DNA of 42,038 nucleotides, taken from Kiritimatiellia bacterium. GTDB lineage: Bacteria; Verrucomicrobiota; Kiritimatiellia; CAIKKV01; CAITUY01. Where the stretch lies: assembly GCA_044359285.1 (NCBI GenBank), contig JBIKMI010000001.1:1-42038 (forward strand). Direction: 5' to 3'. The notes below the pieces were generated by a model. It had not been told where the DNA came from. It did not search any database and saw only the letters and a program-made list of their open reading frames with translations. Shown one piece after another: positions 14,179 to 36,844 of this stretch. A program made the translations under genes and the position numbers. The stretch's first letter is position 1, and every line of letters starts with the position of its first letter.

Positions 14179-14188
14179 AAATGCCTCG

Positions 14189-15877: not shown

Positions 15878-15903
15878 GTGACTATCTCCCAAATACGGTC
15901 AGC

Positions 15904-22265: not shown

Positions 22266-23615
22266 TTATGTACGCTTTACCGCGCAACATCGTGCATCGA
22301 GTTTATTATTAGCCCTGAATTGTTCACACAGTCGCACATACACCCCGGTCATTTTTCCGGCAATGACTTCAATGTCAAAATGCTGACGGACAGCGGTTGC
22401 CCCCGCCTGGCTCATCCGGCGCCACCGGGCTTCATCCGTCAGCAGCGACTCAAGTTCCCGGACCAGCGCATCCGGATCAGCCGGATCATAACACACGCCT
22501 CCTCCGGTCATCCCGATCAACTCCGGCGAGGCACCCAGGCGCGGCTGAACCACCGGCACCCCGCTGGCCATGGCTTCCAGCATGAACATTCCGAACGCCT
22601 CGGGTTTTGACATCGGCACCGCCAGCACCGTCAGTGACTGCAAGAACTCCCGCTTGGTCTTCCGGTCGAAGGCCGGACAGAATTCAACCTCAGCCAGCCA
22701 TTCAGCCGCCCCCAGCTTCTGCTTGAGTCCGGCCAGAAATCCATCATCCTCCGGAGTCTTCCCGCCCATGATTTTCAGTGTCACCCGTCCCGCCAACCCC
22801 CGCTTCCGGATCGCGATGAAGGCATCCACCAGCGTCCCCAGTCCGAGGGAGGCCGACATCCGCGAAAGGTAGCCGATCACAGGCTTTCCGGGAACCCACT
22901 TCGCCTCGCCGTAGGACTCTGCGGTGACCCCGATCGGGATGACATGAAACAGGTCGGCGGGAATGCCTTTCAACCGGTCCTGCATTACCCGGCTGTAATA
23001 CTGGCTGACCGGGAAAAAGGCGGCGATATCACGCGCCTTCTCCGACATCAGTGCCCAGGCTTGCCGGGCCGCTTCCGGATTCATGGCATCAATCCAGGAA
23101 TCCTCATCCTGCAGGGTGCAGACCACGGGAACCCCCACTTCCCGGCGGAGCCGGCCGGCCAGCCCGAGCAGGAGCGCGTTGGACAAGTGAACCAGATCCG
23201 GCTTCTCATGGAGAACCAGCCAGGAAACGAGGCGATCCAACTCCTCTTTCTGTCCGCCTTCCTCCCCTTTCAATACCGACAGGGTCATCTCCTCCAGACC
23301 ACGGGCGTGGGTGGTGCCCGCCCGTCTGGAAACCCAGGTCAGAAGCCGGCGCGAATCCAGCCGGCTCCGCAGCCAACGGGGAAGCCGCCTGAAAGCGGGC
23401 AGCATCTGGGCCAGATAAACCCCCACGGCTCCATAAAAAATCGGCACCTGTGGGGCCCCCATATCCTCCCCTTCCGTCAGCAGGGGAAGATACATCGGCA
23501 CCAACGTCACCTCATGCCCCTGGGCCCGCAAGGCCATGACAAGCTCCTTGTCACGCATGCAGTTCTGACAATAGAAGACGTCACCGGTTCCCGGGATGAT
23601 ATGCACAATTTTCAT
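22266..23615 (-). CDS. Glycosyltransferase family 4 (GT-B fold)
   Basis: MKIVHIIPGTGDVFYCQNCMRDKELVMALRAQGHEVTLV...; C-terminal GT1 domain with the EAFGMFMLEAMASGVPVV motif. The ATG at 23615 overlaps the upstream stop as ATGA. Confidence 0.8.
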   Translation of the reverse strand: MKIVHIIPGTGDVFYCQNCMRDKELVMALRAQGHEVTLVPMYLPLLTEGEDMGAPQVPIFYGAVGVYLAQMLPAFRRLPRWLRSRLDSRRLLTWVSRRAGTTHARGLEEMTLSVLKGEEGGQKEELDRLVSWLVLHEKPDLVHLSNALLLGLAGRLRREVGVPVVCTLQDEDSWIDAMNPEAARQAWALMSEKARDIAAFFPVSQYYSRVMQDRLKGIPADLFHVIPIGVTAESYGEAKWVPGKPVIGYLSRMSASLGLGTLVDAFIAIRKRGLAGRVTLKIMGGKTPEDDGFLAGLKQKLGAAEWLAEVEFCPAFDRKTKREFLQSLTVLAVPMSKPEAFGMFMLEAMASGVPVVQPRLGASPELIGMTGGGVCYDPADPDALVRELESLLTDEARWRRMSQAGATAVRQHFDIEVIAGKMTGVYVRLCEQFRANNKLDARCCAVKRT

Positions 23616-25198
23616 GGCTTTGCGTGCTCCCATGCGAGGGCGCCGGTCGGACAGTGACGGATACACTCCCCGGCCTTTTCGCCCATGCCAGCCGCCAGGG
23701 TGGCATTGAAGGGAGCCGCCATCACGGTGCCAAAGCCACGACCGGTAAAAGCAAGGCCAAGCCCGTCTTCAGCCGTCGCCGCGATACGAACACAGATCCC
23801 GCATTTGATGCACTTCCCCGCCTCATAGACCACCCGATCCCCGCAGGCGCTCCCCGCCACGGGAGTCGATACCGCCACACTGACCGTCAGTCGTCCATCC
23901 GTTTTCAAGGAGCTATGGTCTACATTATATTCGGTAGCATAATCCCGCAGGCGACAACTTTTCACCCGGCGGCAGTCACAGTGCAGACACCTCCGCCCTT
24001 CCTGTGCCGCTGCCTCGGGCACGATCAGGCTGGCCGGAGCCCGCGGCGCCGCAAGTCGTGGCGCGGGCTCCGCATCCCGGACACATTCAGCCAGTTCGGT
24101 ATCGCGTAACCGGCCCAGGCGCGATTGGAATGACCCGGCTTCACCTGTCACCGGGACGCCACTCAGAAACTGATTGATCGCGCACGCCATACTCCGGCCA
24201 TGCGCCATGGCCCGCACCGCCAGCTTTCCCGCATGCACCGCCTCGCCTCCGGCAAATATCATCGGATCCGAGGAACGGAACGTCCCGCCCGCCACGGTGA
24301 GCCCGCGTTCGGTGGCGACAAGCCCCCAGGCGGATAACGCCCCGGAACCCCTGCCCGGCGCGAGCACCACCGCATCATAGGCCGTCCGCAACCGATCCAA
24401 TCCGGCGCCCGGCTCAATCCGGGTGTTCATCTTGAATTCCACCCCGAGCCGGCGGATCACCTCCACATCACGTTCCAACACTTCAGGCGGCAAGGCGGTC
24501 GCCGGGACCTGGTAACGCAGTGCCCCGCCCGGCGCGGCTTGTTCATCAAAGATCGTACAGCCATGACCCGCCTTGGCCAGATAATAGGCCGCCGCCAGAC
24601 CGGCCGGACCGGCGCCGACGATCGCCACCCGCCGACCGGAGCCTGCCACTGCCGGCGTATCGGCCACCCCTGCAGCCCCGGCGGCGACACACCGTTCCAT
24701 CACACAAATGGATACCGGCGCATCATGCCGGCCCCGGCGACACCCCTTTTCGCACGGGGCGGGACAGATGTGCCCCACCACCCCGGGCAGGGCAATCGCC
24801 TCCCGGACCGTCACCAGTGCCTCCTGAATCCGGCCCTCCGCGATCTGACGCAGCATCACGGGAATCTCCATGCGGGCCGGACACGTCATCTGGCAGGGCG
24901 CCTCGCAGTCCCCGGCATGCTCACCCATCAGCAATTCCAACACCCGCTTGCGGTGCAACCGGACCTCAGCAGAATCCGTCTCCACCACCATCCCCTCAAC
25001 GGCAGGCGTACTACAGGCCGGCAACAACCGGCCGGTCGTCATATCCTTGACGGCACAGATCATGCAAGAGGTAAAGGGCTCCAACCCCTGAAGATGACAG
25101 AGCGTCGGAATACCGATCCCCGCATTACCCGCGGCCTCCAGAAGTGTTGCCCCTTCCCGGACCTCCACCACACGTCCGTTCAGCGTCACACGCGGCAT
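23612..25198 (-). CDS. 2Fe-2S ferredoxin domain fused to a GltD/NfnB-like NAD(P)H-dependent FAD oxidoreductase with C-terminal Fe-S motifs
   Basis: N-terminus MPRVTLNGRVVEVREGATLLEAAGNAGIGIPTLCHL...CMIC. GltD-type Cys clusters (CEAPCQMTCP, CPAPCEKGC). Dinucleotide fold RRVAIVGAGPAGLAAAYYLAKAGHGCTIFDEQAAPGG. C-terminal CIKCGICVRI...CIRHCP. The ATG at 25198 overlaps the upstream gene by 13 nt. Confidence 0.75.
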   Translation of the reverse strand: MPRVTLNGRVVEVREGATLLEAAGNAGIGIPTLCHLQGLEPFTSCMICAVKDMTTGRLLPACSTPAVEGMVVETDSAEVRLHRKRVLELLMGEHAGDCEAPCQMTCPARMEIPVMLRQIAEGRIQEALVTVREAIALPGVVGHICPAPCEKGCRRGRHDAPVSICVMERCVAAGAAGVADTPAVAGSGRRVAIVGAGPAGLAAAYYLAKAGHGCTIFDEQAAPGGALRYQVPATALPPEVLERDVEVIRRLGVEFKMNTRIEPGAGLDRLRTAYDAVVLAPGRGSGALSAWGLVATERGLTVAGGTFRSSDPMIFAGGEAVHAGKLAVRAMAHGRSMACAINQFLSGVPVTGEAGSFQSRLGRLRDTELAECVRDAEPAPRLAAPRAPASLIVPEAAAQEGRRCLHCDCRRVKSCRLRDYATEYNVDHSSLKTDGRLTVSVAVSTPVAGSACGDRVVYEAGKCIKCGICVRIAATAEDGLGLAFTGRGFGTVMAAPFNATLAAGMGEKAGECIRHCPTGALAWEHAKP

Positions 25199-27567
25199 GG
25201 GGTGCCCTCCTTCAGCCTGCCCGGGGAACTCAGGTCGACGGCCTCCGCCGGGCACACCTGGCGGCAGGCATCGCATCTTGTACACCGGTTCTGATCGACC
25301 ACATGCTTCCGGTAAGGATCCAGTGCAATGGCCTCCACCGGACACACCTGGGCGCACTTGGTACACCCGATGCATTTGTCATTGATGGTGTAAGAAACAA
25401 GTGACCGGCATTTCAAGGCGGGGCAGCGCCCCTCCAGATGGGCCTCGTACTCGGCCCGGAAGTGGCGGAGCGTCGACAGGACGGGATTGGGGGCGGTCCG
25501 CCCCAGGCCACACAAACTTCCCCTCTTCGCGGTTTGGCCCAGTCCTTCCAGCCGCTCCAGATCGCCCTGTACCCCGCGCCCCGCGCACAGGCGGTCCAGA
25601 ATATCCAGCATGCGTTTGGTGCCGACACGGCAGGGGGTGCACTTGCCGCAGGATTCCTGCCGGGTGAACGACATGAAATAGCGCGCCAGATCAACCATGC
25701 AGTCGGCCTGATCCAGCACCACCAGACCGCCCGAGCCCATGATACATCCCACGGCATCGAGTGACTCATACGTGACCGGCGTGTCCCCCAGCGTGGCGGG
25801 CAGGCAGCCCCCTGATGGCCCCCCGATCTGGACCGCCTTCCAGCCCCGGCGATCCGGTGTGCCTCCGCCGATCTCCTCGACAACATCCCGCACGGTGATC
25901 CCCATGGGCACTTCGATCAATCCCCCGCGGACGACCTTTCCCGTCAGGGAAAACACCTTGGTTCCCTTGCTCGCCCCGCTTCCCAGCGCCGCAAACTTAT
26001 CCGGCCCGTTCCGTAAGATCCAGGGAATCAGCGCCAGGGTTTCAACATTATTGATGGCGGTGGGCTTGTTCCACAATCCGCATTCGGCTGGAAACGGGGG
26101 CCGGGCACGGGGCATGGCGCGCCGGCCTTCGATGGACGCCAGCAACGCGGTCTCCTCGCCGCTGACAAACGCGCCCGCGCCTTCCACGATCTTCACCGAA
26201 AAATCGAATGGCGTTCCCAGGATCGCCTTGCCCAGCAGGCCGCCGGCCTCCATGCGGACCAGGGCCTCGCGGATCCGTTTCAGGGCCAGCGGATACTCGG
26301 CGCGGATGTAGAGATATCCTTCATGGATCCCCATGGCGTAGGCGGCCAGCACCATCCCCTCCAGCACGCGATAGGGAAATGATTCCAACAGCATCCGGTC
26401 CATAAACGCGCCGGGATCGCCCTCATCGCCATTGCACACCAGGTATTTTGGGCTTCCCGCGGCCTTGCGTACGGCGGCCCATTTCCGGCCCGTCGGGAAG
26501 CCGGCGCCCCCGCGCCCCCGCAACCCGGATTGCAACACCCGCTCAACAATCGCCTCCGGCATCCCTTCCGCCAGACACGCTTTAAGGGCCTGCCAGCCAC
26601 CATGCGCGGCATACTCCCCGATGTCGAGGGGATCCATATCGCCACACCACTCACTCGCAATCCGCTGCTGCTTGCCAAGGAACGAGCAGACCGGCGCATC
26701 CCGGACATCCAAAGCAAACCGGCTGACCGGTTCCCAGACCTCATCGGTCAGCCACTGTTCCAGAATGGCGTCCAAGCCCCCTTGTAATTTCCGCATCAGG
26801 CCCCGGGGCTTGAAATGGCGACGTACAATCCGGGCGGCATCCTTGGCTTGGACCTTGGCATACGTCACAGGCTCACCCGACCCGGCCACCACCTGCACCA
26901 ACGGAGTCTGGTGGCACATCCCCACACAGCCGACCGGCTTGACGAGCGCCTCGGCGCCCAACTTCCGGACCTCCCGCTCCAGGCCACGCCGGACCTCCTG
27001 GCTTCCACCGGCAACGCAACAGGAGCCCACTCCAACGCGGATCTCGACCAGGCCGGAGCTACGACTTGCCGACTGATCCTGCACGGCGGGCACAGCCCCT
27101 TTTTTTTCAAGCTCCAGGAAATCCTCCACGGCACGCGCAACGGTCTGGGTCGTCAGGTGCCCATAGGTGACGTCATCAATCCTGATCACAGGGGCCAGGG
27201 TGCAGCAGCCCAGACAGGCGACCCGCTCAATCGTGAAAACACCCGCGGGGTCCGTGTCCTCACCCTCCCTGATCTTCAACAGCCGGACCAGGGCGGACTC
27301 GATCAGTTCGGCGCCCTTCACATGACAGGCCGTGCCGTGGCAGACGCTGATGATATGCCGGCCGACGGGCTTATGGCGGAACTGGGAATAGAAGGTGGAG
27401 ACGCCAGCCATGGTGGCGGGCGTGATATCCGTGAGTTCACAAACCCGGCGCAGGGCGGCTTCCGGCAAATAGCGGTAGCGCTGCTGCACCCGTTGGAGGA
27501 TCGGGATCACCAGCGCGGCATCACGCCCGAGCTCAGCGACAATGGAATCAACGAAGGAGAGGTCCAT
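25186..27567 (-). CDS. Fused NuoE-like (2Fe-2S) and NuoF-like (FMN/NADH, 4Fe-4S) subunit with two C-terminal ferredoxin clusters (HndA/HndC, HydC/HydB or StnA/StnB type)
   Basis: NuoE part: ILQRVQQRYRYLPEAALRRVCELTDITPATMAGVSTFYSQF...SVCHGTACHVKG. NuoF part: GLRGRGGAGFPTGRKW, YLVCNGDEGDPGAF, ESCGKCTPCR. Ferredoxin motifs CIGCTKCAQVCP and CTRCDACRQVCP. I preferred the ATG at 27567 over the GTG at 27633. Confidence 0.85.
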   Translation of the reverse strand: MDLSFVDSIVAELGRDAALVIPILQRVQQRYRYLPEAALRRVCELTDITPATMAGVSTFYSQFRHKPVGRHIISVCHGTACHVKGAELIESALVRLLKIREGEDTDPAGVFTIERVACLGCCTLAPVIRIDDVTYGHLTTQTVARAVEDFLELEKKGAVPAVQDQSASRSSGLVEIRVGVGSCCVAGGSQEVRRGLEREVRKLGAEALVKPVGCVGMCHQTPLVQVVAGSGEPVTYAKVQAKDAARIVRRHFKPRGLMRKLQGGLDAILEQWLTDEVWEPVSRFALDVRDAPVCSFLGKQQRIASEWCGDMDPLDIGEYAAHGGWQALKACLAEGMPEAIVERVLQSGLRGRGGAGFPTGRKWAAVRKAAGSPKYLVCNGDEGDPGAFMDRMLLESFPYRVLEGMVLAAYAMGIHEGYLYIRAEYPLALKRIREALVRMEAGGLLGKAILGTPFDFSVKIVEGAGAFVSGEETALLASIEGRRAMPRARPPFPAECGLWNKPTAINNVETLALIPWILRNGPDKFAALGSGASKGTKVFSLTGKVVRGGLIEVPMGITVRDVVEEIGGGTPDRRGWKAVQIGGPSGGCLPATLGDTPVTYESLDAVGCIMGSGGLVVLDQADCMVDLARYFMSFTRQESCGKCTPCRVGTKRMLDILDRLCAGRGVQGDLERLEGLGQTAKRGSLCGLGRTAPNPVLSTLRHFRAEYEAHLEGRCPALKCRSLVSYTINDKCIGCTKCAQVCPVEAIALDPYRKHVVDQNRCTRCDACRQVCPAEAVDLSSPGRLKEGTPCRV

Positions 27568-27584
27568 AGACACCCTCACCCCAG

Positions 27585-27607
27585 CCCTCTCCCCTGAAGG
27601 GAGAGGG
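27585..27607. repeat. GC-rich stem-loop (9-bp stem, 5-nt loop), REP-like intergenic element
   Basis: ccctctccc-ctgaa-gggagaggg in the 62-nt gap between the propeller gene and the NuoEF gene. Read as protein it gives PLPSGERAGVRV, the kind of spurious peptide produced by a widespread GC-rich intergenic repeat type; that comparison is from memory. Confidence 0.5.
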
Positions 27608-27629
27608 AGCAGAGTTGTGTTTGCCGCTT

Positions 27630-29360
27630 TCACTTGGTCTGCCTCCCGATGCAGAATAGCGTCTTGATGCCCCGGACCAGGAACCGATCACCTGCGAAGA
27701 CTGGCGAGCCGTCGCTCGGTTCACCCAGAACCACTTTCCCGATTTCCCCGTATTCCCGGCCGGCCTTGAGAATGAATAGCGTTCCGTTCCGGGCCACCAG
27801 ATAGAGTTTATCCGCCGCTAACGTCGGCGACCCGTAAAACTCCCCTTCCAGATTCTGCTCCCAGACTTTTTTACCCGTCTTCACCTCCAGGCAGGTGAGC
27901 AGTCCTCCCGAATGAACGAAAAAGGCGAGCTCCCCATTGCTGACCGGCGAAGAGACATCGCTCACGCCCTCCTCAACCGTCCACGCCACATGGGTCGCTG
28001 AAACATCACCGGTCCCGTCGGGCCGGATGGCATAGATCCGGTCTGCGGTGATGGAGACCAGAACCAGACCGCCCGCGATGATCGCCGAGGGGGCCACATC
28101 GGTTCCGGCACAATGCACCTTCCAGAGTTCACGGCCCGAGCCGGGGTCATAGGCAATGATCCACTCGTTGGCCACCGTGATGAGCTGGGGGCCTTTTTCC
28201 GTCGGCACGACCACCGGCGAGGGCCAGGAATCCGAAACGGCGCGTGGCGTGCTCCACACCGTCTTGCCCGTCACCGCATCCAGGGCGATAAGGCGCGAGG
28301 GATGACCCTTCTCGACATCCTGATCATACTGGATCAGGACCGTGCTCCCGGACCATGCCAGTGAAGCGGAATGTCCATAGCGATTGAAGGGCAGCCCGAG
28401 ATCAATCTCCCAGAGGATTTGCGCACAATGGTCCACGGCGATCATATCGCCGTTCGCAAAAATAGAGATCACCCGCAGACCATCCGTCACCGAGGTAGGC
28501 GCCGCATACCCGGTGTCCTTGAAAATCTCCGGAACCGCTTTGGGCGGGCGCGCGATCCCCTTCGCCTCCACGCTCCAAAGCCGGGTCCCGGTGGCGAGAT
28601 CATAACAGTATACCTCGCGTTTTTCCTCCGAAGCGCCCGTCAGGTAGATCTTGTTCCCAGCCACAATCGGGGAACTCATCCCCGGCAGCGGGATTCCGGC
28701 CTTCCAGACAATCCCCAGCTCACCCTCGCCCGTCCCGGGATCGGGCGTATGGGAAGAAACCGCCACACCGCTTCCCGAGGGACCCCGGAACGCAGTCCAC
28801 TCCAGGCGCCCGGTTGAGCCGGTCGCAACGCCGGCCTCCACCGCTGTCGCCGGAACGGCGACAACCACGACCGCACCAGGCGGCCTGCCGCTCATGCCGA
28901 TGTACAGGGTCGCCGTCAGAACCGCCACCATCACTCCCGCCAGCGTCCAGCGGGCGGATGATTCCACCTGACGCTGATCCGGTAGCGGGGGATACTCACG
29001 GGGGTTGGGCCGCCGTCTCCTGAGCAGCGCGACCAGCCGCAAACTGATCAGCGACACCGCCACCCCGCCCAGCAGGAGGAAAATCCCGGTCCGCCGCGAG
29101 GCGAGTCCGCCGAAATAAAACCGCCGCGCCATCCAATCCAGATCGCGTATTTTTGTCTGGATCGCGAGATCCGCCGGATTCTCCTTGAACATCACCCGCA
29201 TCGCATCCAGTTCCGGCAGGTTCAGGGGTGAGGAGACCCTGACCGTCATCAGGGTCGAGACCAGCAGGATGGCCACCAACAATGAAAAGACGCACGCCAC
29301 CGCCGCCACGGCCAGTGTAAGCCGGTAGAGTCCCGGCGAGACAGGCTTCGGATTATCCAT
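27630..29360 (-). CDS. Membrane-anchored PQQ-like (BamB-type) beta-propeller repeat protein
   Basis: Three N-terminal hydrophobic helices (LTLAVAAVACVFSLLVAILLV, GIFLLLGGVAVSLISLRLVALL, WTLAGVMVAVLTATLYIGM) followed by repeated propeller blades (A..G.IY......G.L.A.D..TG...W). The ATG at 29360 is preceded by GGGAGGGA and overlaps the upstream stop by 8 nt. Confidence 0.7.
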   Translation of the reverse strand: MDNPKPVSPGLYRLTLAVAAVACVFSLLVAILLVSTLMTVRVSSPLNLPELDAMRVMFKENPADLAIQTKIRDLDWMARRFYFGGLASRRTGIFLLLGGVAVSLISLRLVALLRRRRPNPREYPPLPDQRQVESSARWTLAGVMVAVLTATLYIGMSGRPPGAVVVVAVPATAVEAGVATGSTGRLEWTAFRGPSGSGVAVSSHTPDPGTGEGELGIVWKAGIPLPGMSSPIVAGNKIYLTGASEEKREVYCYDLATGTRLWSVEAKGIARPPKAVPEIFKDTGYAAPTSVTDGLRVISIFANGDMIAVDHCAQILWEIDLGLPFNRYGHSASLAWSGSTVLIQYDQDVEKGHPSRLIALDAVTGKTVWSTPRAVSDSWPSPVVVPTEKGPQLITVANEWIIAYDPGSGRELWKVHCAGTDVAPSAIIAGGLVLVSITADRIYAIRPDGTGDVSATHVAWTVEEGVSDVSSPVSNGELAFFVHSGGLLTCLEVKTGKKVWEQNLEGEFYGSPTLAADKLYLVARNGTLFILKAGREYGEIGKVVLGEPSDGSPVFAGDRFLVRGIKTLFCIGRQTK

Positions 29361-30627
29361 GCGCTTCCCTCCCTTTCCCGAGACGCTCATGCTCTTTGGG
29401 ACACGACTCAAAACACCGCGCGCAACTCAGGCATTCGCCGCGATCAATTTCATAGTCAACCCGGGCGCGCCGGAGGGATAACGTAATCAGGCCCAGCCCC
29501 AGAAAGCCGCCCAGCAAGCCACCCAGCCACCAGCCACCCCGGTGGAACCGGGCCCTGGCAAGCGCGGCCTGCCGCTCCAAATCCTCCCGCGTGGCGCCAC
29601 TGCTCTGGAAGGCCTCGATCTCCATGGAGAGAGCCGGATCCTGAGTGCGCAAAGCCTCCTCCAGCCGGACCGCCGGATTCATCCGGGCCAGGCGGGTATC
29701 CAGCCGGGAGCCTGCCCAGCCACCCGCCACCACGAGAAGCACGCACAGAACAAGCAGCCCCTTCAGGCGGCGAAGGCCCTGCTCCCGTGGCTCGGCCGTC
29801 CCGACCATCGGCACCCGGATGGCATCAAACGGGCAGGCCGTCTCACACAGCCGGCACCGCACACACTCGTCGGGTGTAATCGTCACATGCCACTTCGAGA
29901 GCCGGGAGAGCCCGCTCAACAGGACGCCATACGGACAGAGAAACCGGCAATAGGGCCTCGCCACCACGAGCCCGACCAGCAACAGCCCAACGCCCGCGAT
30001 CAGGATCGGGGCTTCGCCGCTCAAGCGGAAAATCGCAATGAAGGGATCATACCGGCAGATGATATAAGCCGAACCGGTCGCCGCCAGCAGCACCGCCAGC
30101 CCCAGATACACCACGGGAATCACCTTCAGCACCTGTGCCACGCGGGCGGGCACCCGCATGGGGAACAACAGGGTCATTTCCTGAATCGCGCCCAGCGGAC
30201 AGACCGCCGCGCAGAAGACCCGCCCGAAAAACAGGGCAAACACGAGTGGCAAAATGAAAAAAGCCACCACGCTTAAAGGGAGCACCACACCCGGGTCCGA
30301 GAGCCACACGGCAACATTCTGGATACTGCCGATGGAACAGACGCATCCCTTGCGCCAGAAGCCAAAATAGAGAAGTGAAAACAGCGTCAGCAGGTAGAGG
30401 CCCCGGCGTGACCGGCGTTTCAAAGCCAACCAGGCAGCGAGGGCCAGCGCACCGGCCAGCACGGCCACATCCAGGGCGGCCAGGGCGGCCGCCCGGGGAG
30501 CCGGCACGGAAACAGCAGGCATCGTGTACCCGCTTTCGAACTGCGGTTTCGGGAAGCGGTTCTCGGCCCCGGCATCCGGGCCCAGACAGGCCAGCAGCAG
30601 AAGCAGGCACATCCACACCCGCTTCAT
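29353..30627 (-). CDS. NapH/MauN-like polytopic 4Fe-4S binding membrane protein
   Basis: Signal peptide MKRVWMCLLLLLACLG and multiple TM helices. Fer4_5-type motifs FCAAVCPLGAIQE and YCRFLCPYGVLL. Classical cluster CVRCRLCETACP plus a C-terminal CLSCARCFESCP. ATGA overlap with the upstream gene. Confidence 0.75.
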   Translation of the reverse strand: MKRVWMCLLLLLACLGPDAGAENRFPKPQFESGYTMPAVSVPAPRAAALAALDVAVLAGALALAAWLALKRRSRRGLYLLTLFSLLYFGFWRKGCVCSIGSIQNVAVWLSDPGVVLPLSVVAFFILPLVFALFFGRVFCAAVCPLGAIQEMTLLFPMRVPARVAQVLKVIPVVYLGLAVLLAATGSAYIICRYDPFIAIFRLSGEAPILIAGVGLLLVGLVVARPYCRFLCPYGVLLSGLSRLSKWHVTITPDECVRCRLCETACPFDAIRVPMVGTAEPREQGLRRLKGLLVLCVLLVVAGGWAGSRLDTRLARMNPAVRLEEALRTQDPALSMEIEAFQSSGATREDLERQAALARARFHRGGWWLGGLLGGFLGLGLITLSLRRARVDYEIDRGECLSCARCFESCPKEHERLGKGREAHG

Positions 30628-31325
30628 GACCCACCCGCCTGATCAGCAGAAGGACCCAGCAGGCCGGGAGTCTCCGCGGGCACCCGCCTGAAGGCATCCG
30701 CCGGACAGTTCCGTGCGATGGCACATTCATTGCAATTGACGCAGAGGTCATGACGGACCTGCAACACCAGCGAACTGTTCCCGAATGCCCCGCAGCCTTT
30801 CACACACCGGCCGCACCCCACACACAGGGACTCGTCAATGGTGTACTCGTGGTAGGGGTTCTCAATAAACGCCCGCTTGATGGCCCCGGTGGGGCACATC
30901 TGATTTTCCGCGCCACTGGTCAGTGCGGTGGCACCAGGCTGGAAATAGCCGAAGCAAAGCCGGCAATACCCGCACATCCGCGCGCGATGCACGCATTTGA
31001 CCGCCGACGGCTGGAGCACACAACTGGTCGCGCAGCGCCCGCACTGGATGCATTTGGCGGGGTCAAGCTGCCAGACTTTGCTGCCCGCGGCAACAGCCCC
31101 AGCCGGGGCGGCCACCGGCACGGTACAGGAAGAGAGATCGGGACACCCCTTACAAAGCTTCCATTGATCCGGGTCGCTCCCGTCGGGACATCGCCTTCTC
31201 AAGGCCATCTTCAAGCCGAACCCGGCCAGCCCGGCCACCGCCACGCCACGCAGAAGGCCACGCAGGAAATCACGGCGGCTGCTCACGGGCAACGGGCCCG
31301 GCGTTGTCTCATTGGCGCTAGTCAT
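30624..31325 (-). CDS. Tat-exported multi-cluster ferredoxin (NapG/MauM-like)
   Basis: Twin-arginine signal SSRRDFLRGLLRGVAVAGLAG. Cys motifs CIQCGRCATSC, CGYCRLC, CVGCGRCVKGC and CVNCNECAIARNCP. Confidence 0.75.
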   Translation of the reverse strand: MTSANETTPGPLPVSSRRDFLRGLLRGVAVAGLAGFGLKMALRRRCPDGSDPDQWKLCKGCPDLSSCTVPVAAPAGAVAAGSKVWQLDPAKCIQCGRCATSCVLQPSAVKCVHRARMCGYCRLCFGYFQPGATALTSGAENQMCPTGAIKRAFIENPYHEYTIDESLCVGCGRCVKGCGAFGNSSLVLQVRHDLCVNCNECAIARNCPADAFRRVPAETPGLLGPSADQAGGS

Positions 31326-33612
31326 GGCTTGAATACATCCTTATGGAATCCGAGGAAGGATCGAGCACGAGTATTCGTCCCGTTGAATCCACTGCCAGAT
31401 CGAGCCCCACCACATCTTTTCCCCATTCGTCCTGGCCCGAAATGATTCCGGTGAAACGCCCGGCGGCGTCATACCGCTTGACGCGAACCAGATGCTTCTC
31501 GCTGGTCACAAAAGAGCCATCGGGCGCCAACGCGATGTTGCTGGGGTTGCAACAGCCGCAAAACCCGTCCGGATCCGTCGACGCTTTTCCCCAGCCTGAC
31601 AAGTAGGTTCCGCTGGAGTCAAAATGCTCGACCCGGTGCATCCCGGGATTGACAATCCAAACCGTGCCATCCGGCGCCGTGGCTACATCAAAAAAGGCGC
31701 TGGGCACCACAAAGCCTTCAGGCCGGGAAGGTGACTTATCCCCGAGACGACCCGTCACCTCGCCAGACAGGTTAAAGCGCCACACAATCCGATTCTGGCA
31801 GTCAGCAACGAACACCGCATTGGATGAGGCCGCCACCGACGTGACCATGGTATTCGGCGCCGGACTTTTCCAGACGGCCTTGCGCACGCCCGCCTGATCG
31901 TAAATTTCAACATGATCATCCAGCCCGACAACCAGATCGCCATTGACCGCTTGCGCCAGGGCCCTGACTGTTCCGGCAACCGGAATGGTGACGCGGTGCA
32001 CCCCCATGCGATTCATCACTTCAATCCCCATCTTTGCCCCCACGAAAATCTCATCCTGCCGCCCCACGGCCAGAGCCGTGACATTGGAGAGCGAGGACTT
32101 GATCCATTCGCTACCGCCTCGGCGCACCGCACCCGCATCAACCTTCTTGACCGCCAGGGGCTCACGACTCAAATCCAAGCATCGCAGGGTGCTGTAATCC
32201 CTGACCAACAGTCGGCCCCCGGCCAGCGCCAGGGGCGCCCAGGCTTCCTTGCCATCCAACACCTTGGCTTGCGCCAGCCGGGTATACCCAAGTTCAGTGG
32301 CCTTGGCCAGGGTAAGTACCCCGTTATCCTCCAGGATCAACAATTTGCCATCGGCAATCATGAAAGGACCAAGCCCGAACCGATCGGCAGGTCCGCTCCG
32401 CCACACCACCTTGCCGCCTGGCTCCATGCACACCGCCTCTTTCCGGACCGCGCCCGCATCTGCCGGCAACACCGTATAGAGGTGGCCCTTGTAAAAAACC
32501 GGCGTATGCTGTTCGCAGGCAAACGTCTTCTTGTCCAGCCGCGTGACCAGGCTCACGGAATACTTCCCGCCCTCCTGCGCCACCTGGAAAAGGGCGCTCC
32601 CGGCGCCATAACCGGAGGTCACCAAAAACAGTCCGTTATCCAGGGGCACCGGAGTCGGGGCGACCACCTGGAAATTCCAGGCATCCGTTGTCCACAACAC
32701 GGTGCCGGCATCGGCCGGCTCCGCCGAGACCCCGATAATGCCGCCGACTGCACAATAAATGTACATTTTCCGCCCATTGAATTCCATCGGCATCACGGAG
32801 GCATGTGACATCAGCCATTTGTCAGGATTTGGGGTCTGCCACACCACCTTCCCGGTATCGATATCCACCCCCATCAGGAGCGCCTTGCCGCCCACCCCGA
32901 GCACCACCTGCCGGCCATCGATTAACGGACATTGCCCCGTGTACCACATGGGGACCTCGGCCCCCCACTCCTTTTCAAGATCAATGCCCCATTTGAAATC
33001 ACCCGTGACCGGATCGACTGCCATCACATGGCAACGGGGGCCGATGGTGACGACACACCGCTCCGTGACTGAGGGCACCGTCCGCGAGATGCCGTGATTG
33101 CGCTTGATCCGCACCTTGTACCAGCGGCGCCAGATCTCGCGCCCATCATCCAGCGACAGGCAACGCAGGGCATCCGCCCCCTCCCGGCCGTCATAGTCGA
33201 GCAGATAGACCCGCCCATTCAGGATAGCGGGTCCGGCATAGCCTTCGCCCAGTTCAATGGACCAGAGGCACGGCGGCCCGTTGGAGGGCCAGGCATTCGC
33301 CAGCACTTCCGAGTCCGGCGCCACATTGTCATGCCGGCTTCCCCTGAAGCACGGCCATTCACCCGGCCACTGGGACGGAATGCCTGCGGAAGCTGTGAAA
33401 TTTTCGCCTATGCGAACCGTCTCCACGGCACCGGTATCAGCGGGGGCGCCCATGATTTCGTAAGCTTGCGGAAGCCTGCGCGCGACATCAGGGCCCGGGG
33501 CTGCGCCACGCCACCATGCCAGTGCGGCGCCAGCCACACACACACCGGCCAGGAGAGTGGCTAATACGGGAATGACTCCTTTCCCGGGCCTTATGTTGAG
33601 GTCTCTCATCAT
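31318..33612 (-). CDS. Signal-anchored double beta-propeller protein (N-terminal PQQ-like propeller, C-terminal NHL-like repeats)
   Basis: N-terminal hydrophobic anchor VIPVLATLLAGVCVAGAALAWW. PQQ/BamB-like blades (GRVYLLDYDG..., VVTIGPRCHVMAVDPVTGDFKW, GKALLMGVDIDTGKVVW). The C-terminal ~270 aa has NHL-like blades (PDGTVWIVNPGMHRVEHFDSSG, LAPDGSFVTSE..VRVKRYDAAG, VDSTGRILVLDPSSDSIRMY). Confidence 0.65.
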   Translation of the reverse strand: MMRDLNIRPGKGVIPVLATLLAGVCVAGAALAWWRGAAPGPDVARRLPQAYEIMGAPADTGAVETVRIGENFTASAGIPSQWPGEWPCFRGSRHDNVAPDSEVLANAWPSNGPPCLWSIELGEGYAGPAILNGRVYLLDYDGREGADALRCLSLDDGREIWRRWYKVRIKRNHGISRTVPSVTERCVVTIGPRCHVMAVDPVTGDFKWGIDLEKEWGAEVPMWYTGQCPLIDGRQVVLGVGGKALLMGVDIDTGKVVWQTPNPDKWLMSHASVMPMEFNGRKMYIYCAVGGIIGVSAEPADAGTVLWTTDAWNFQVVAPTPVPLDNGLFLVTSGYGAGSALFQVAQEGGKYSVSLVTRLDKKTFACEQHTPVFYKGHLYTVLPADAGAVRKEAVCMEPGGKVVWRSGPADRFGLGPFMIADGKLLILEDNGVLTLAKATELGYTRLAQAKVLDGKEAWAPLALAGGRLLVRDYSTLRCLDLSREPLAVKKVDAGAVRRGGSEWIKSSLSNVTALAVGRQDEIFVGAKMGIEVMNRMGVHRVTIPVAGTVRALAQAVNGDLVVGLDDHVEIYDQAGVRKAVWKSPAPNTMVTSVAASSNAVFVADCQNRIVWRFNLSGEVTGRLGDKSPSRPEGFVVPSAFFDVATAPDGTVWIVNPGMHRVEHFDSSGTYLSGWGKASTDPDGFCGCCNPSNIALAPDGSFVTSEKHLVRVKRYDAAGRFTGIISGQDEWGKDVVGLDLAVDSTGRILVLDPSSDSIRMYSSHD

Positions 33613-33729: not shown

Positions 33730-34215
33730 CTAAAACGAGATAATCGTCACCCCATCGCCACCGGGCGTCTGGCCGGGTTCGCCCAGTCGGAAATGACGGA
33801 TCCCCATCTCCTTCAGGCGCAGATGCAGGGCTTTTTTCAAGGCGCCCGAGCCATGCCCGTGAATCACCCGGACCTCATCCACATGACCTAGCAGCGCCTC
33901 ATTCAGGAAATGATCCAGCTTCACCAGCATCTCTTCAACCCGCAGGCCGTGCATATCAATTTCACGGGCCACCGCCGCACGCCGGGCGGGCGGCCTCACG
34001 GGCTCCCGCCGCATTTTCGCTTTTGATTTTTCCCGGCCGGCGGCCAACCCGGACTGATCGAGATTGAACCGCACCCGGCCCACTTCCACCACCGCTCTGC
34101 GCCCATCATCACTGAGTGACACCACCGTTCCGTGATCCTTCAGCCGCTCAACCCACACACGGCTGCCAATGGCCCCGGGGGCCGGGCACACTGCTTTCCT
34201 GGAGTTCTGCGTCAT
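33730..34215 (-). CDS. Stand-alone Smr (MutS2 C-terminal-like) domain protein
   Basis: EIDMHGLRVEEMLVKLDHFLNEALLGHVDEVRVIHGHGSGALKKALHLRLKE is the Smr nuclease domain. The N-terminus resembles the KOW-like segment that precedes Smr in MutS2. Confidence 0.8.
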   Translation of the reverse strand: MTQNSRKAVCPAPGAIGSRVWVERLKDHGTVVSLSDDGRRAVVEVGRVRFNLDQSGLAAGREKSKAKMRREPVRPPARRAAVAREIDMHGLRVEEMLVKLDHFLNEALLGHVDEVRVIHGHGSGALKKALHLRLKEMGIRHFRLGEPGQTPGGDGVTIISF

Positions 34216-34224
34216 GGGCAGGTT

Positions 34225-34974
34225 TTACCGTTCTTCCAGCCGGAATTCAAATTGTAGATTCATCTCGGACGCCACAGGGCGTCCGCCCTGCTCCGCAGGC
34301 TTGAAACGGGCGGCCTTTGCGGCGGCCACCGCCGAGGCATCCAGCGCCGGATGGCCGCTGCCCGCCACCACCTCCGCGGTCTCCACCTCCCCTTGCTCAC
34401 TCACCCGTAGATGAACCGTTACCCGCCCGGCTTCACCCCGCACCCTCGCCCCATAGGGATAGTGCGGCTGTATTGCAGAAAGCGCGATAGGGCGGCCCCC
34501 GCCAGCAGGCTCACTCCTCCCCTTGACCGCCGGCTCCAGCTTCCCCTTGCCAGCAGGCGCACTCCTCCCCTTGACCGCCGGCTCCACCCCGGCAGGGCCG
34601 GCCCGCAGCTGGATCTCCGGCATGACCGGCACCCACCGGACGGTCTGCTCCGGTGCCTGGACCGGGGGCTCGGGGACCATCAGGGCCCGGTCTTCCGGTA
34701 CTTCAGGAACAGGCGCGGCACGCGCTTCGGGCGGAATCACCGCAAGGGCCTGCTCCAACTCCGTGGGCTCGCCGGACGGCACCGGGGCAGGAAGGGGGGG
34801 CACGACATCCACCACCCATCCTTCGGAGACTGGCCGCAGGCGGGCCACCGGCCAATAGCGGACCGCCACCAATAGCACCCCCCCTGCGCACACATGCAAC
34901 AGGAGGGCAAGGGAAAACGCCCGACGGAGCGTCGGGCGCGACAACCAACTCACACTCTGAGACAGAGTAGTCAC
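34225..34974 (-). CDS. tonB: TonB family energy transducer
   Basis: N-terminal TM helix (AFSLALLLHVCAGGVLLVAV), a Pro-rich spacer, and a C-terminal TonB domain (YPYGARVRGEAGRVTVHLRVSEQGEVETAEVVAGSGHPALDASAVAAAKAARFKPAEQGGRPV). The start is uncertain: GTG at 34974, just after the receptor stop, or upstream starts extending to 35055. Confidence 0.75.
   Translation of the reverse strand: MTTLSQSVSWLSRPTLRRAFSLALLLHVCAGGVLLVAVRYWPVARLRPVSEGWVVDVVPPLPAPVPSGEPTELEQALAVIPPEARAAPVPEVPEDRALMVPEPPVQAPEQTVRWVPVMPEIQLRAGPAGVEPAVKGRSAPAGKGKLEPAVKGRSEPAGGGRPIALSAIQPHYPYGARVRGEAGRVTVHLRVSEQGEVETAEVVAGSGHPALDASAVAAAKAARFKPAEQGGRPVASEMNLQFEFRLEER
34501..34586. repeat. Direct repeat inside tonB (38-nt units, 48-nt period, one mismatch)
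   Basis: 34501-34538 and 34549-34586 differ at a single base. They encode EPAVKGRSAPAGKGKL / EPAVKGRSEPAGGG. Confidence 0.85.
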
Positions 34975-34975
34975 C

Positions 34976-36844
34976 TTAAAACAGCACTTTGACGCCCCCA
35001 TACCCGGCGCGACCGGGGCTTCCGTAACCAATGGCCGGCTCGTACTCCTCGTCAAACAGGTTCTCCACGCGCCCGAAGAGGGTCATATTCCTACGAACGT
35101 CGTACGAGGCGTAAAGGTTCACCAGGATATACCCATCCAGCGTGGCCGCCATATAGGTTGCGAAATCCTCATCCATGCGCTCGCCCACATAGCTCACACT
35201 CACCGTCCCCTTGAGCTTTGCGGTCACGTCATACGTGGTGTCGAGCGAAGCCTTATTACGGGGCCGGCGCAAGAGCTGCTCGCCTGTGAGCTTGTTTTCC
35301 GTATCGGTGTACGTGTAAGCCGCCCGCATGGAAAGATCCCTGGCCGGCTTGGCGGTCACAAAGGTTTCAACCCCGCGCGTTTCCGCCTGACTGACATTCC
35401 CGTACTTCATGGTCACGAAATCGTAATCAATCAGATCTTCAAACTGATTTTCGAAATAGGTGACCCCCACCAGGACCTTGCCACCGGCCAGTTTCTGCTC
35501 CACCCCGGCATCCCACCCCTTGCTGCTCTCCGGGTTCAGATCGGGACTGCCATAGGATGAATAGAGCTGAAACAGGGAAGGCGCCTTGAAGCCGGTACCG
35601 TAAGAGCCTTTGAAACGGGTGTCCGTAGCGGCAACGTCATAGGAAGGCGCCAAACGCCAGGTGGGTTCGGTCCCGAACGAATCATAACTATCGATGCGCC
35701 CCCCGGCGGTGGTGGTCAGCGGCCCGGTAGTCAGGATATCCTGCGCATAGGCACTTTGATGACGTGCCGTCTTGCGCGCAAACTGGTCCACATAGCCGAC
35801 TGACTCATACGTTGATTCCGCCGACTCCTGCTGGGCCTCAATTCCGGCCGTGACAATATTGGCCTCACCCAGGAAGAGATCATTCTGCCACTCCAGCTTC
35901 TGGAGCAGGCTGTCGAACGAGGAATCCCCGAGCGAGGAGGTATCCTCCCGGCTTTGGCTCACCCATGACCCGCCCACCCGCGGACGCCACTGGCCATCAA
36001 GCAACTTACCCTTTCCCTCCCCATAGAGTGACAGCAGCTCATAGGCACCCTGATTGTCGCCATCCACCGGCCGGCCATTCGCGAAATCATCGTAATCGTA
36101 GTCCGCCTGGTTCCAGCGCAGGATCATATTGGCCTCGAACTCATCCGCCGGGGTCCAGCCCAGCTTGCTCGACAACTCCGTCCGGCGATAGCCGTCTTTC
36201 TCCGGGTTCCCGTTTTTCTCTGCCGCGCTGGAGAACCCCTCCGAATCCTGGCGGGAGATCCCCACCGAGTAATTATAGTTCGAGGTGCCGCCACGGACGG
36301 CCGCCTTCTCGTTGAAGGTGTTGAACGAGCCCGCCTCGGCCGACACCTCGCCGCCCACAGGCCCTGCCCCTTTTTTGGTGATGACGTTAATCACACCGCC
36401 CATCGCATCGGCCCCATAGAGAGGGCTCTGCGGCCCCCGCAAGACTTCGATCCGCTCAATATTCTGAGCGGGCATCTGGGAGAGATCCGCACCACGCCCC
36501 AGTCCGGAAGGATCATTGAGCGGCACGCCATCCACCAAAACCAACGTCTGCTCCGAGGAGGCACCCCGGATAAAGATCGACACGGTCCCGCCGGCACCGC
36601 CCAGCTGCACGACATCCAACCCCGGCACCTCCCGCAAGGCGTCAGCCACCGTGGCACACTGCCGCTCCACCAATTGCGCGTGATCCACCACGCTCACCGA
36701 ACTACCGACCGTCGACAGGGATTGCTCCACCCGGGTTGCCGTGACAACCACCTGCTGCTGGACCACTTCATTGGTCGGTCCCGCCACACTCCCCTGCAAT
36801 CCGCCTGCCAACACCAATCCCACCCACATTGTCAATTTTCTCAT
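34976..36844 (-). CDS. btuB: TonB-dependent outer-membrane receptor, BtuB-like (cobalamin uptake inferred from the upstream riboswitch)
   Basis: Signal peptide, a TonB-box/plug region (VVVTATRVEQSLSTVGSSVSVVD...VPGLDVVQLGGAGGTVSIFIRGASSEQTLVLVDGVPLNDP), and a beta-barrel ending in ...GGVKVLF with the terminal aromatic residue. Confidence 0.85.
   Translation of the reverse strand: MRKLTMWVGLVLAGGLQGSVAGPTNEVVQQQVVVTATRVEQSLSTVGSSVSVVDHAQLVERQCATVADALREVPGLDVVQLGGAGGTVSIFIRGASSEQTLVLVDGVPLNDPSGLGRGADLSQMPAQNIERIEVLRGPQSPLYGADAMGGVINVITKKGAGPVGGEVSAEAGSFNTFNEKAAVRGGTSNYNYSVGISRQDSEGFSSAAEKNGNPEKDGYRRTELSSKLGWTPADEFEANMILRWNQADYDYDDFANGRPVDGDNQGAYELLSLYGEGKGKLLDGQWRPRVGGSWVSQSREDTSSLGDSSFDSLLQKLEWQNDLFLGEANIVTAGIEAQQESAESTYESVGYVDQFARKTARHQSAYAQDILTTGPLTTTAGGRIDSYDSFGTEPTWRLAPSYDVAATDTRFKGSYGTGFKAPSLFQLYSSYGSPDLNPESSKGWDAGVEQKLAGGKVLVGVTYFENQFEDLIDYDFVTMKYGNVSQAETRGVETFVTAKPARDLSMRAAYTYTDTENKLTGEQLLRRPRNKASLDTTYDVTAKLKGTVSVSYVGERMDEDFATYMAATLDGYILVNLYASYDVRRNMTLFGRVENLFDEEYEPAIGYGSPGRAGYGGVKVLF

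Follow-up and report, generated by a model that had tools for sequence, protein, structure and literature searches.

Gene organisation of the locus

A stretch of 42,038 nucleotides (nt) from contig JBIKMI010000001.1 of a Kiritimatiellia bacterium (assembly GCA_044359285.1), referred to here as the window, carries a compact minus-strand operon of six redox genes, P1 to P6, together with a gene for a glycosyltransferase of family 4 (GT4). P1 and P4 encode membrane-anchored beta-propeller proteins, P2 and P3 a pair of iron-sulfur (Fe-S) proteins, and P5 and P6 a cytoplasmic module of the Bfu family. The operon is real and conserved over hundreds of species from about ten phyla, and it joins known modules in an undescribed, widely conserved arrangement.

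A first reading of the window, made from the sequence alone and called the original prediction below, described six minus-strand genes with a single 62-nt gap and with overlaps of 8 nt (P1/P2), 4 nt (P2/P3), 8 nt (P3/P4) and 13 nt (P5/P6). All these coordinates and overlaps were exact when the junctions were rechecked (Table 1), and the domain content given for P1-P6 was borne out by Pfam and NCBIfam. The six-gene extent holds for the redox genes; GT4 was overlooked, as were an ABC/FtsX transporter and extra propellers that occur in relatives. The ATG of GT4 overlaps the P6 stop codon (ATGA), and the unit therefore comprises at least seven genes.

Within the P4/P5 spacer lie a hairpin of 10 bp (27585-27607) and, ahead of the P5 ATG at 27567, a Shine-Dalgarno-like GAGG. 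The hairpin is perfect and GC-rich, of the CCCTCTCCCT/AGGGGAGAGGG type, and occurs only once in the window. Translation of P5 could also begin at a GTG at 27633, which would overlap the P4 stop codon and would bring the hairpin into the coding sequence; one gene caller chose this GTG on the identical metagenome contig L001. Termination at the hairpin at 27585, which would divide the operon and which the original prediction had named as a possible refutation, finds no support in the sequence checks. No intrinsic terminator was called in the spacer, no U-tract follows the hairpin, and the fold energy of the spacer (-28.7 kcal/mol) gives a z-score of only -0.35 against shuffled sequence. The junction is also short in most relatives, with a median P4-to-P5 spacing of about 31 nt in 61 related loci. 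The other median spacings in related loci are about 18 nt for P2-to-P3, 25 nt for P3-to-P4 and 2 nt for P5-to-P6.

A scan for sigma-70-type consensus promoters gave no convincing site upstream of P1. Control of the operon by a riboswitch or other RNA element was considered and rejected: the single Rfam match is a cobalamin riboswitch that belongs to the TonB-dependent receptor lying upstream. Seven orthologous loci from other phyla had no riboswitch match, and the element therefore probably serves only the neighbouring B12-uptake unit. The heme-binding motif CxxCH is absent from all seven proteins, and no molybdopterin, H-cluster or hydrogenase domain was found in P1-P6 and GT4 with Pfam and NCBIfam, in agreement with the original prediction.

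Table 1. Features of the redox operon and its neighbours (positions in the window; aa, amino acids)
Feature	Position	Strand	Length	Basis or remark
P1	31318-33612	minus	764 aa	Open reading frame listing and junction check
P2	30624-31325	minus	233 aa	Open reading frame listing and junction check
P3	29353-30627	minus	424 aa	Open reading frame listing and junction check
P4	27630-29360	minus	576 aa	Open reading frame listing and junction check
P5	25186-27567	minus	793 aa	Open reading frame listing and junction check
P6	23612-25198	minus	528 aa	Open reading frame listing and junction check
GT4-family glycosyltransferase, seventh gene	22266-23615	minus	449 aa	Pfam, ATGA junction
P4/P5 spacer	27568-27629	minus	62 nt	Sole gap among the six redox genes
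P1 membrane helix	aa 13-36 of P1			N-terminal
P1a, 8-bladed BamB-like propeller	32170-33423 (about aa 64-481 of P1)	minus		AlphaFold2/Foldseek
P1b, 6-bladed NHL propeller	31321-32112 (about aa 501-764 of P1)	minus		AlphaFold2/Foldseek
Smr-domain gene	33730-34215	minus		Ends 117 nt before the redox operon
TonB	34225-35055	minus		
TonB-dependent receptor	34976-36844	minus		Directly downstream of the riboswitch
Cobalamin riboswitch RF00174	37061-37253	minus		Rfam, 72 bits

Conservation and distribution

Six-frame open reading frames of 90 fetched loci were searched with the window proteins; the comparison set comprised 81 non-redundant related loci (L007, L009, L012-L090). Per-gene counts take only loci with enough flanking DNA. 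On this basis P1a was in place in 61 of 64 loci, P1b in 69 of 70, P2 in 73 of 74, P4 in 67 of 69 and P5 in 55 of 58. P6 was in place in 47 of 54, and several of the misses are locus ends or frameshifts.

The order P1a-P1b-P2-P3-P4-P5-P6 recurs in Kiritimatiellae, Verrucomicrobiota and Lentisphaerota, in Planctomycetota (Pirellulales, Phycisphaerae and Sedimentisphaerales), in Bacteroidota, including cultured Marinifilum, Labilibaculum and Ancylomarina, and in KSB1, Calditrichota, Aminicenantes, Aegiribacteria and Spirochaetaceae. The gene set also outlasts rearrangement, for example in a locus of the Victivallales (L046) and in the order found in Pirellulales (L079). Synteny in related genomes had been named in the original prediction as the point on which it could fail; the gene set holds together across about ten phyla, and a refutation by loss of synteny is therefore clearly not at hand.

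Relatives of P3 with more than 50% identity are found in many phyla, and a scan with one genome per species gave a P3-like gene in at least 596 species genomes (confirmed loci). A few cultured strains are among them, namely Marinifilum fragile, M. flexuosum, Labilibaculum sp. K2S and Ancylomarina sp. DW003. One metagenome-assembled genome of the Rikenellaceae has the complete cluster twice (L015 and L045), with proteins 75-92% identical; the two copies represent either paralogues that have diverged or mixed strains in a co-assembly.

The cytoplasmic module P5 and P6

Sequence comparisons identify P5 and P6 as a BfuCB/BfuA module of the Bfu family, with the NfnABC/Stn transhydrogenases as the closest solved relatives. 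Pfam places 2Fe-2S_thioredx (161 bits, aa 7-149), Complex1_51K (149 bits), NADH_4Fe-4S (112.9 bits) and Fer4_21 (43.5 bits, aa 729-778) in P5. In this protein a NuoE-like [2Fe-2S] BfuC (about aa 7-149) is fused ahead of BfuB, and the same NuoE-NuoF fusion was found in nearly all loci with a complete P5 gene. The BfuB part consists of an N-terminal Cys-rich 2Fe-2S-like domain, the FMN/NADH site, the [4Fe-4S] cluster B1, an H-x4-C-x4-C motif for the B2 site and a C-terminal 2x[4Fe-4S] region, B3/B4, of the kind that interacts with ferredoxin. The best matches in the Protein Data Bank (PDB) are 9bov_B (E 4.8e-208), StnB 8oh5_B (4.7e-205) and NfnB 9n5u_B (5.4e-204).

Homologues of NuoF that do not bifurcate lack the B2-B5 clusters, and the His of the B2 site is kept in nearly all BfuB and absent from the non-bifurcating homologues (Schut et al. 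2022, PMC9304861). In an alignment of 55 orthologues, 212 positions of P5 are conserved at 90% or more. The NuoF-type FMN/NADH site and B1 are present, with GRGGAGFP, CNGDEGDPGAF and SCGKCTPC all conserved at this level, as are the His and both Cys of the B2 site and all eight Cys of B3/B4. The B2-site stretch EYEAH-LEGR-C-PALK-C aligns, at the sequence level, with EYIAH...CPAKQC and EYEAH...CPAKSC of the solved NfnB/StnB proteins, and the B3/B4 region aligns with the C-termini of 9bov_B and 8oh5_B. B5 and C1 are also represented: the B5 region GSCCVAGGS...VGCVGMC aligns with the N-termini of 9bov_B and 8oh5_B, and two of its four Cys are conserved at 90% or more and the other two at 60-90%. 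By these sequence features P5/P6 may have bifurcating activity, in which a third substrate reduces NAD+ and ferredoxin in a coupled reaction.

P6 has Pfam matches to Fer2_4, Fer4_20, NAD_binding_8 and Fer4_Nqo3. It is built up by an N-terminal [2Fe-2S] domain, a GltD/NfnB-type 2x[4Fe-4S] part with an FAD Rossmann fold, and C-terminal [4Fe-4S] motifs (CxHCDC...C and CxxCxxC...CP). Its similarity to the BfuA-type proteins StnC and NfnA (E 3e-85 to 5e-71) falls into two pieces: residues 4-283 correspond to StnC (8oh5_C) 6-287, and residues 294-521 to StnC 444-671. The ten residues in between (284-293) stand in for the NADP(H)-binding Rossmann domain of about 156 residues in StnC (288-443). Only 120 residues separate GxGxxG (aa 195) from FAGGE (aa 315), which leaves no room for a second dinucleotide fold.

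An exhaustive search of 1.84 billion representative proteins was made for P6 relatives. Among the best 150, which were examined, 124 align with P6 without a break, and their length is nearly always about 490-560 aa; the other 26 or so are mostly split at residue ~283 like StnC. Judged from these sequences, the short form is common among relatives and is not an accident of one genome. Because the NADP(H)-binding domain is missing, the third substrate is not NADPH, and the third-substrate branch needs another partner. The original prediction of a cytoplasmic NAD(P)H module was thus right for P5 and wrong for P6. It had also left the NuoEF-like part without a partner; in the NfnABC/Stn relatives the GltD-like, BfuA-type subunit corresponding to P6 is itself the catalytic partner.

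The Fe-S pair P2 and P3

P2 is predicted to be a Tat-exported ferredoxin with four [4Fe-4S] clusters. It has Pfam matches to Fer4, Fer4_7 and Fer4_6, and a twin-arginine motif, SRRDFLRG, of which R17, R18 and F20 are conserved at 90% or more in 50 orthologues. The same orthologues keep 17 Cys at this level, 16 of them in four [4Fe-4S] cluster motifs and one further.

P3 is a polytopic protein with about eight hydrophobic segments (hydropathy) and with Pfam matches to Fer4_5 (47.1 bits) and Fer4. A signal peptide is followed by an invariant periplasmic RFPxPxF, a GCxC motif, two CX3CP motifs and two CxxCxxCxxxCP ferredoxin motifs, between which an additional pair of hydrophobic segments is inserted. 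The ferredoxin motifs are of cytoplasmic type and lie behind positively charged loops. Among 26 sequences from several phyla the invariant Cys are C95, C97, C139, C143, C191, C227 and C231, with both CX3CP motifs (C139-x3-C143-P and C227-x3-C231-P) invariant, and C255/C258/C261/C265 and C399/C402/C405/C409 in the ferredoxin motifs.

The pair resembles NapG and NapH in architecture, as the original prediction had it; P3 lies outside the NapH family by its models, and a place of P2 in the NapG/MauM family is doubtful. P3 scores 50.3 bits with TIGR02163 (cut-off 213) and 46.2 with PRK09477 (cut-off 234), and none of the 16 NCBIfam matches of P2 at E<=0.01 is a NapG/MauM model; only generic ferredoxin models were found. 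Catalytic genes of Nap, Mau or Nos systems are absent from the window and not recurrent in the 81 related loci. A true NapGH, Nos or Mau system was rejected on these grounds, with family cut-offs missed widely and no catalytic gene nearby in any locus.

The propeller proteins P1 and P4

In P1 a membrane helix is followed by two propellers, P1a and P1b, with a disordered linker between them in the AlphaFold2 model (mean pLDDT confidence 89.4, from a 47-sequence alignment). Pfam recognises PQQ_2 (57.7 bits) and, weakly, NHL (21.7 bits). Foldseek searches of the PDB gave BamB (3prw, TM-score TMt 0.74) for P1a and the NHL domain of TRIM2 (7qrv, TMt 0.77) for P1b, whose top structural matches are the TRIM2/Thin NHL domains. 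The two propellers are encoded by separate adjacent genes in most relatives and are fused in the window.

Conservation was determined from 66 and 61 orthologues for the parts of P1. Residues of P1a conserved at 90% or more are K170 R171 N172 H173 G174 x S176 R177 T178, G226 Q227 C228 P229, N262...M268 x H270 and E367/Q368, and P1b has an equally conserved vicinal Cys pair in GCCNP (G196 C197 C198 N199 P200, numbering of the NHL part). The identity of P1a across phyla is 50-70%, which is unusually high for a scaffold. In propeller enzymes the ligand sites lie in the loops entering the innermost strands. When the conservation was mapped on the AlphaFold2 model, the conserved residues of P1a were found in seven of the eight such loops. 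This placement points to a functional pocket in the central channel of the modelled P1a.

P4 (Pfam PQQ_2, 86 bits) has three N-terminal helices, including the conserved loop IRDLD...R, a disordered linker and a BamB-like 8-bladed propeller that is predicted to face outward. The AlphaFold2 model (mean pLDDT 80.2) has three to four such helices, at 9-42, 49-60, 65-114 and 129-157, and an RRRR loop lies between helices 2 and 3, before the last helix. Foldseek against the PDB gave TMt values of 0.79-0.82 for BamB. Relatives of about 980-994 aa occur in Planctomycetota (P0265, P0267-P0269, P0272 and P0273) and are 36-40% identical over nearly all of P4, which suggests that P4 is fused to a further domain of about 400 residues in these proteins.

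Neither P1 nor P4 carries a Tat motif, and their sequences suggest export in unfolded form by Sec. A catalytic centre, if there is one, would therefore consist of side chains or periplasmically acquired metal ions. The search for an enzymatic relative by fold and profile gave only BamB, designed propellers, NHL domains and weak matches to tetrathionate hydrolase or pyrroloquinoline quinone (PQQ)-dependent alcohol dehydrogenase. A PQQ-dependent dehydrogenase was rejected as well: TIGR03075 gives 37.9 against a cut-off of 480 for P4 and no match for P1, the PF01011 match is only local, and the fold of P4 is much closer to BamB (TMt 0.8) than to PedH (6zcv, TMt 0.48). The extracytoplasmic propeller enzyme of the original prediction is a conjecture, the best structural matches being BamB and NHL domains.

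Glycosyltransferase, transporter and additional propellers

GT4 has Pfam matches to Glycos_transf_1 and Glyco_trans_4_4 and only generic GT4 matches in NCBIfam. An orthologue lies within the cluster in 22 of 46 informative loci, from Bacteroidota, KSB1, Aminicenantes, Calditrichota, Kiritimatiellae and Planctomycetota. The only recurrent extra families in the 81 loci are an ATP-binding cassette (ABC) ATPase (30 loci), an FtsX permease (29 loci), GT4 (25 loci) and propellers. Relatives add one to six soluble BamB-like paralogues, in all of which a signal peptide precedes W-P-x-[FW]-R-G, and tandem arrays of up to five or six were found in Bacteroidales.

Relatives also hold a small BamB-like propeller beside GT4, a LolD-like ABC ATPase and a duplicated MacB/FtsX-type permease of about 1100 aa (for example L079 24-6565, L007 17147-21284 and L049 16713-19973). 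In the Pirellulales locus L079 the order is propeller-GT4-ABC-FtsX-P1a-P1b-P2-P3-P4-P5-P6, tightly packed. The GT4/ABC/FtsX part is located downstream of P6 in Bacteroidota and Kiritimatiellae and upstream of P1a in Pirellulales, and the occurrence of an identical gene set in permuted order argues for a functional link. The window has GT4 and lacks the ABC/FtsX transporter genes.

Discussion

No published description of this gene combination was found in the literature, in line with the original prediction, which knew of no characterised system of this composition. The cytoplasmic part is closest to NfnABC/Stn (8oh5, 9bov and 9n5u). The BfuB part of P5 aligns with these end to end (E ~1e-205) and has the FMN/NADH site, B1, the B2 motif and B3/B4 in common; a NuoE-like BfuC is present, and P6 corresponds to StnC/NfnA over the [2Fe-2S] domain, the GltD-type 2x[4Fe-4S] part, the FAD fold and the later [4Fe-4S] motifs. 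Unlike in these enzymes, BfuC and BfuB are fused in P5, and P6 lacks both the NADP(H)-binding domain and the formate-dehydrogenase-like C-terminal region beyond residue 671 of StnC (528 versus 1172 aa). The genes also sit in an operon for membrane and periplasmic proteins. With the NADP(H)-binding domain missing and in this operon setting, P5/P6 is therefore not a NADH/NADPH transhydrogenase of the known kind, and an ordinary NfnABC/Stn enzyme was rejected.

The membrane part shares with NapGH, MauMN and NosGH a Tat-signal four-cluster ferredoxin whose gene is translationally coupled to that of a polytopic protein bearing two CX3CP and two [4Fe-4S] motifs. It differs in the extra hydrophobic pair that splits the ferredoxin motifs of P3, in the scores of P3 below the NapH cut-offs, in the absence of a NapG/MauM match for P2, and in its cytoplasmic neighbour, which is an NADH/ferredoxin module and not the quinone pool. 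In flavinylated NapH-like systems, too, an Fe-S membrane protein of NapH-like type enters into modular combination with a beta-propeller oxidoreductase outside the cytosol, and NuoF-like cytosolic donors have been noted for the MsrQ-like systems (Meheust et al. 2021, PMC8238504). In contrast to the flavinylated systems, a Tat ferredoxin takes the place of the FMN-binding domain here and the propellers are not ExaA/PQQ-dehydrogenase or NirS members; FMN_bind or ApbE domains were not found in P1-P6 by Pfam, nor are they among the recurrent families of the 81 related loci.

The predicted Mbh-Bfu and Nuo-Bfu complexes (PMC9304861) are similar in that BfuABC is encoded in the operon of an integral membrane complex and the third substrate is left to additional subunits. 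Their partner is an ion-pumping complex of complex-I/Mbh type, whereas the partners here are a NapH-like polyferredoxin and periplasmic proteins. In the survey of Schut et al. (2022), 17 BfuB clades have no assigned function, and none of the types described is linked to NapH or to propellers (PMC9304861). P1a and P4 share the fold of BamB (TMt 0.74-0.82, sequence identity 16-18%) and have a weaker fold likeness to tetrathionate hydrolase (6l8a/7cqy, TMt 0.57-0.65). They differ from BamB in their scores with TIGR03300 (27.8 for P1 and 51.9 for P4, against 285), in being anchored by membrane helices and not by lipid, and, for P1a, in having strongly conserved channel-lining residues of its own.

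We give roughly even chances to the reading that the seven genes encode one envelope-spanning redox system, with no heme and no evident quinone-binding partner, that links NADH and ferredoxin to a periplasmic redox reaction. One system is supported by the tight linkage of P2 to P6 across about ten phyla, and physical association by the P1a-P1b and NuoE-NuoF fusions. The topology is supported by the conserved Tat motif of P2, by the cytoplasmic-type motifs of P3 behind positive loops and by the RRRR loop of P4. The Bfu branch that serves NADPH in NfnABC/Stn would dock instead on the cytoplasmic 2x[4Fe-4S] domain of P3, and P3 would carry electrons across the membrane via the conserved cysteines of GCxC and CX3CP. 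On the outside P2 would be held between the membrane-anchored P1 and P4, where the terminal reaction would take place, and would distribute electrons to a site formed with P1 and P4. Candidates for a catalytic centre are the vicinal Cys pair of GCCNP and the channel-lining Lys, Arg, Asn, His, Gln, Cys and Met residues. The transmembrane NADH/ferredoxin-linked conduit of the original prediction is thus also our best reading, with corrections to the NADPH role of P6, the enzymatic propellers and the family names.

The modularity that this requires has precedents. Bfu cores join varied third-substrate modules, including a polyferredoxin "nanowire" (PMC12318220) and predicted membrane-bound complexes (PMC9304861), and NapH-like proteins occur in modular combinations with propeller oxidoreductases outside the cytosol, such as ExaA and NirS (PMC8238504). 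The preferred direction is outward. NADH would be oxidised at P5, one branch would reduce ferredoxin, and the other would exit via P6, P3 and P2 to an extracytoplasmic acceptor of higher potential, for which sulfane sulfur, Fe(III) chelates and quinone-like humics are examples. Outward flow would provide fermenters with an electron sink and, at the same time, with reduced ferredoxin. It is favoured because the NapH-family systems cited as characterised, PceC and Nos, belong to organohalide- and nitrous-oxide-reduction clusters (PMC8238504), and because an unexplained acceptor reduction is known from Kiritimatiella glycovorans and Pontiella. These bacteria reduce elemental sulfur (S0) and Fe(III) citrate as well as anthraquinone-2,6-disulfonate (AQDS) during fermentation; K. 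glycovorans has no quinones or c-type cytochromes and the authors call the reduction route unclear (PMC7356697). Several Planctomycetes also reduce S0 (PMC7356697). We hypothesise that the cluster may be tied to the S0, Fe(III) and AQDS reduction of Kiritimatiella and Pontiella.

Several points weigh against this reading. Everything beyond the identity of the domains is drawn from gene context, and we know of no NapH-family protein for which a transmembrane electron route has been established. Profile searches of PDB sequences, Foldseek and family models gave no signature of PQQ or another cofactor in the propellers, whose best structural matches are a non-enzymatic scaffold (BamB) and NHL domains. 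In an Omnitrophota locus (L087 9399-15588) the order is P2-P3-P4-P1a-P1b with no adjacent P5/P6 within the locus, so the membrane and periplasmic genes evidently do not need the Bfu genes beside them, and several kb lie between P4 and P5 in L009 and L014. A respiratory or electron-sink role does not account for GT4 or for the LolD-like/FtsX transporter of relatives. The BfuA branch of the solved Bfu enzymes carries mid-potential electrons, and coupling to high potential is only predicted (PMC9304861). Next to the Omnitrophota cluster lie genes for fatty-acid synthesis, an OPT transporter and a Band 7 protein.

An explanation that we consider unlikely is that two functionally distinct units merely share an operon. 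P2/P3 and the propellers would then be a NapGH-type quinol dehydrogenase/reductase on the quinone pool, and P5/P6 a soluble Bfu enzyme with an exposed FAD and a small cytoplasmic third substrate. NapGH-type pairs have been described as quinol-linked (PMC8238504), the FAD-binding fold of P6, which looks intact, could serve as a catalytic site, and the sole non-overlapping junction is that between P4 and P5, which has its own Shine-Dalgarno-like motif; the Omnitrophota locus provides an example of the membrane module without adjacent P5/P6. However, P5 and P6 are kept next to P4 in 55 of 58 and 47 of 54 loci at the short median distance given above, which is unusually persistent for independent units, and the P4/P5 spacer has no terminator. 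The cytoplasmic ferredoxin-type clusters of P3 would be left without any other evident cytoplasmic partner. K. glycovorans, the cultured type species of the class, is reported to have no quinones (PMC7356697), which would count here if this species carries the cluster. The reverse direction in the same architecture is rather improbable in our view: a periplasmic low-potential donor (an aldose, by way of the sugar/lactone couple, or a reduced sulfur compound) would be oxidised at the propellers, and P5/P6 would bifurcate to NAD+ and ferredoxin. This agrees with all structurally characterised Bfu enzymes, which pass mid-potential electrons of the third substrate via BfuA to the BfuBC core (PMC11829005, PMC12318220) and have H2, aldehydes or NADPH as third substrates. 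NapH-like systems beside ExaA-type propeller oxidases have likewise been proposed to take electrons inward (PMC8238504), and many carrier lineages are carbohydrate degraders (as generally known; for Kiritimatiellales, PMC7356697). Oxidation of a sugar-type donor, on the other hand, needs a hydride-accepting cofactor, and neither the PQQ-dehydrogenase models nor a fold nearer BamB than PedH provides for one. No donor-specific domain was recognised in the operon proteins, which also counts against inward flow.

The gene neighbourhood and the BamB-like folds bring in a role in envelope biogenesis or maintenance, to which we assign a low probability. The propellers would act as scaffolds or chaperones with GT4 and, in relatives, with the LolD-like ABC ATPase and the duplicated MacB/FtsX permease, and the Fe-S conduit would only supply periplasmic reducing power, either for a disulfide such as one formed by the vicinal Cys pair of the NHL part or for modification of an exported glycoconjugate. 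Consistent with this are the best structural matches to BamB, the ATGA coupling of GT4 to P6 in the window, the presence of GT4, ABC ATPase and FtsX in the same packed cluster in Pirellulales L079, Kiritimatiellae L007 and many Bacteroidota, the conserved Cys in exported proteins, including GCCNP, and the tandem soluble paralogues of Bacteroidales. Yet a bifurcation-type module is an elaborate donor for housekeeping thiol reduction, for which known systems such as DsbD use thioredoxin. The identity of P1a across phyla and its conserved channel-lining polar residues are more typical of an active site, and the absence of ABC/FtsX genes from the window indicates that the redox module can stand without them nearby.

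To our knowledge, every characterised Bfu-type enzyme is soluble. Enzymes of this type are central to anaerobic energy conservation, and a third-substrate branch that leads through a NapH-like protein to the periplasm would, if true, extend bifurcation to extracytoplasmic chemistry. We doubt, without dismissing it, that a flavin-based bifurcating enzyme spans the cytoplasmic membrane without hemes or quinones in such a way that NADH oxidation drives both ferredoxin reduction inside and acceptor reduction at cofactor-poor propellers; this would be a respiratory-type complex of a new class. The envelope-spanning conduit would be a candidate route for the sulfur, iron and AQDS reduction of Kiritimatiellales, which proceeds without quinones or cytochromes (PMC7356697). 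Such a bifurcating complex would, if true, explain electron disposal outside the cell with energy gain in quinone- and cytochrome-free fermenters such as Kiritimatiella and in S0-reducing Planctomycetes. With the conduit, some members of the large unannotated "PQQ-like/BamB-like" propeller families in bacteria of the Planctomycetes-Verrucomicrobia-Chlamydiae and Fibrobacteres-Chlorobi-Bacteroidetes groups would also gain a function. The species genomes with a P3-like subunit span abundant sediment and gut-associated lineages, and the existence of cultured carrier strains makes the hypothesis testable.

Other genes in the window

Apart from the operon and the B12-uptake unit, the window contains an open reading frame of 2161 aa (3157-9642, minus strand) with no Pfam match at E<=1e-4. 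At 9722-12849 on the minus strand a gene for a sigma factor of the extracytoplasmic function type is followed by one whose 876-aa product carries a zf-HC2 anti-sigma motif along with vWA domains and a YfbK C-terminal domain. Subunits A and B of topoisomerase VI, which is uncommon in bacteria, are encoded side by side at 13027-15892 (minus strand), with Spo11/Toprim and Topo-VIb transducer domains.

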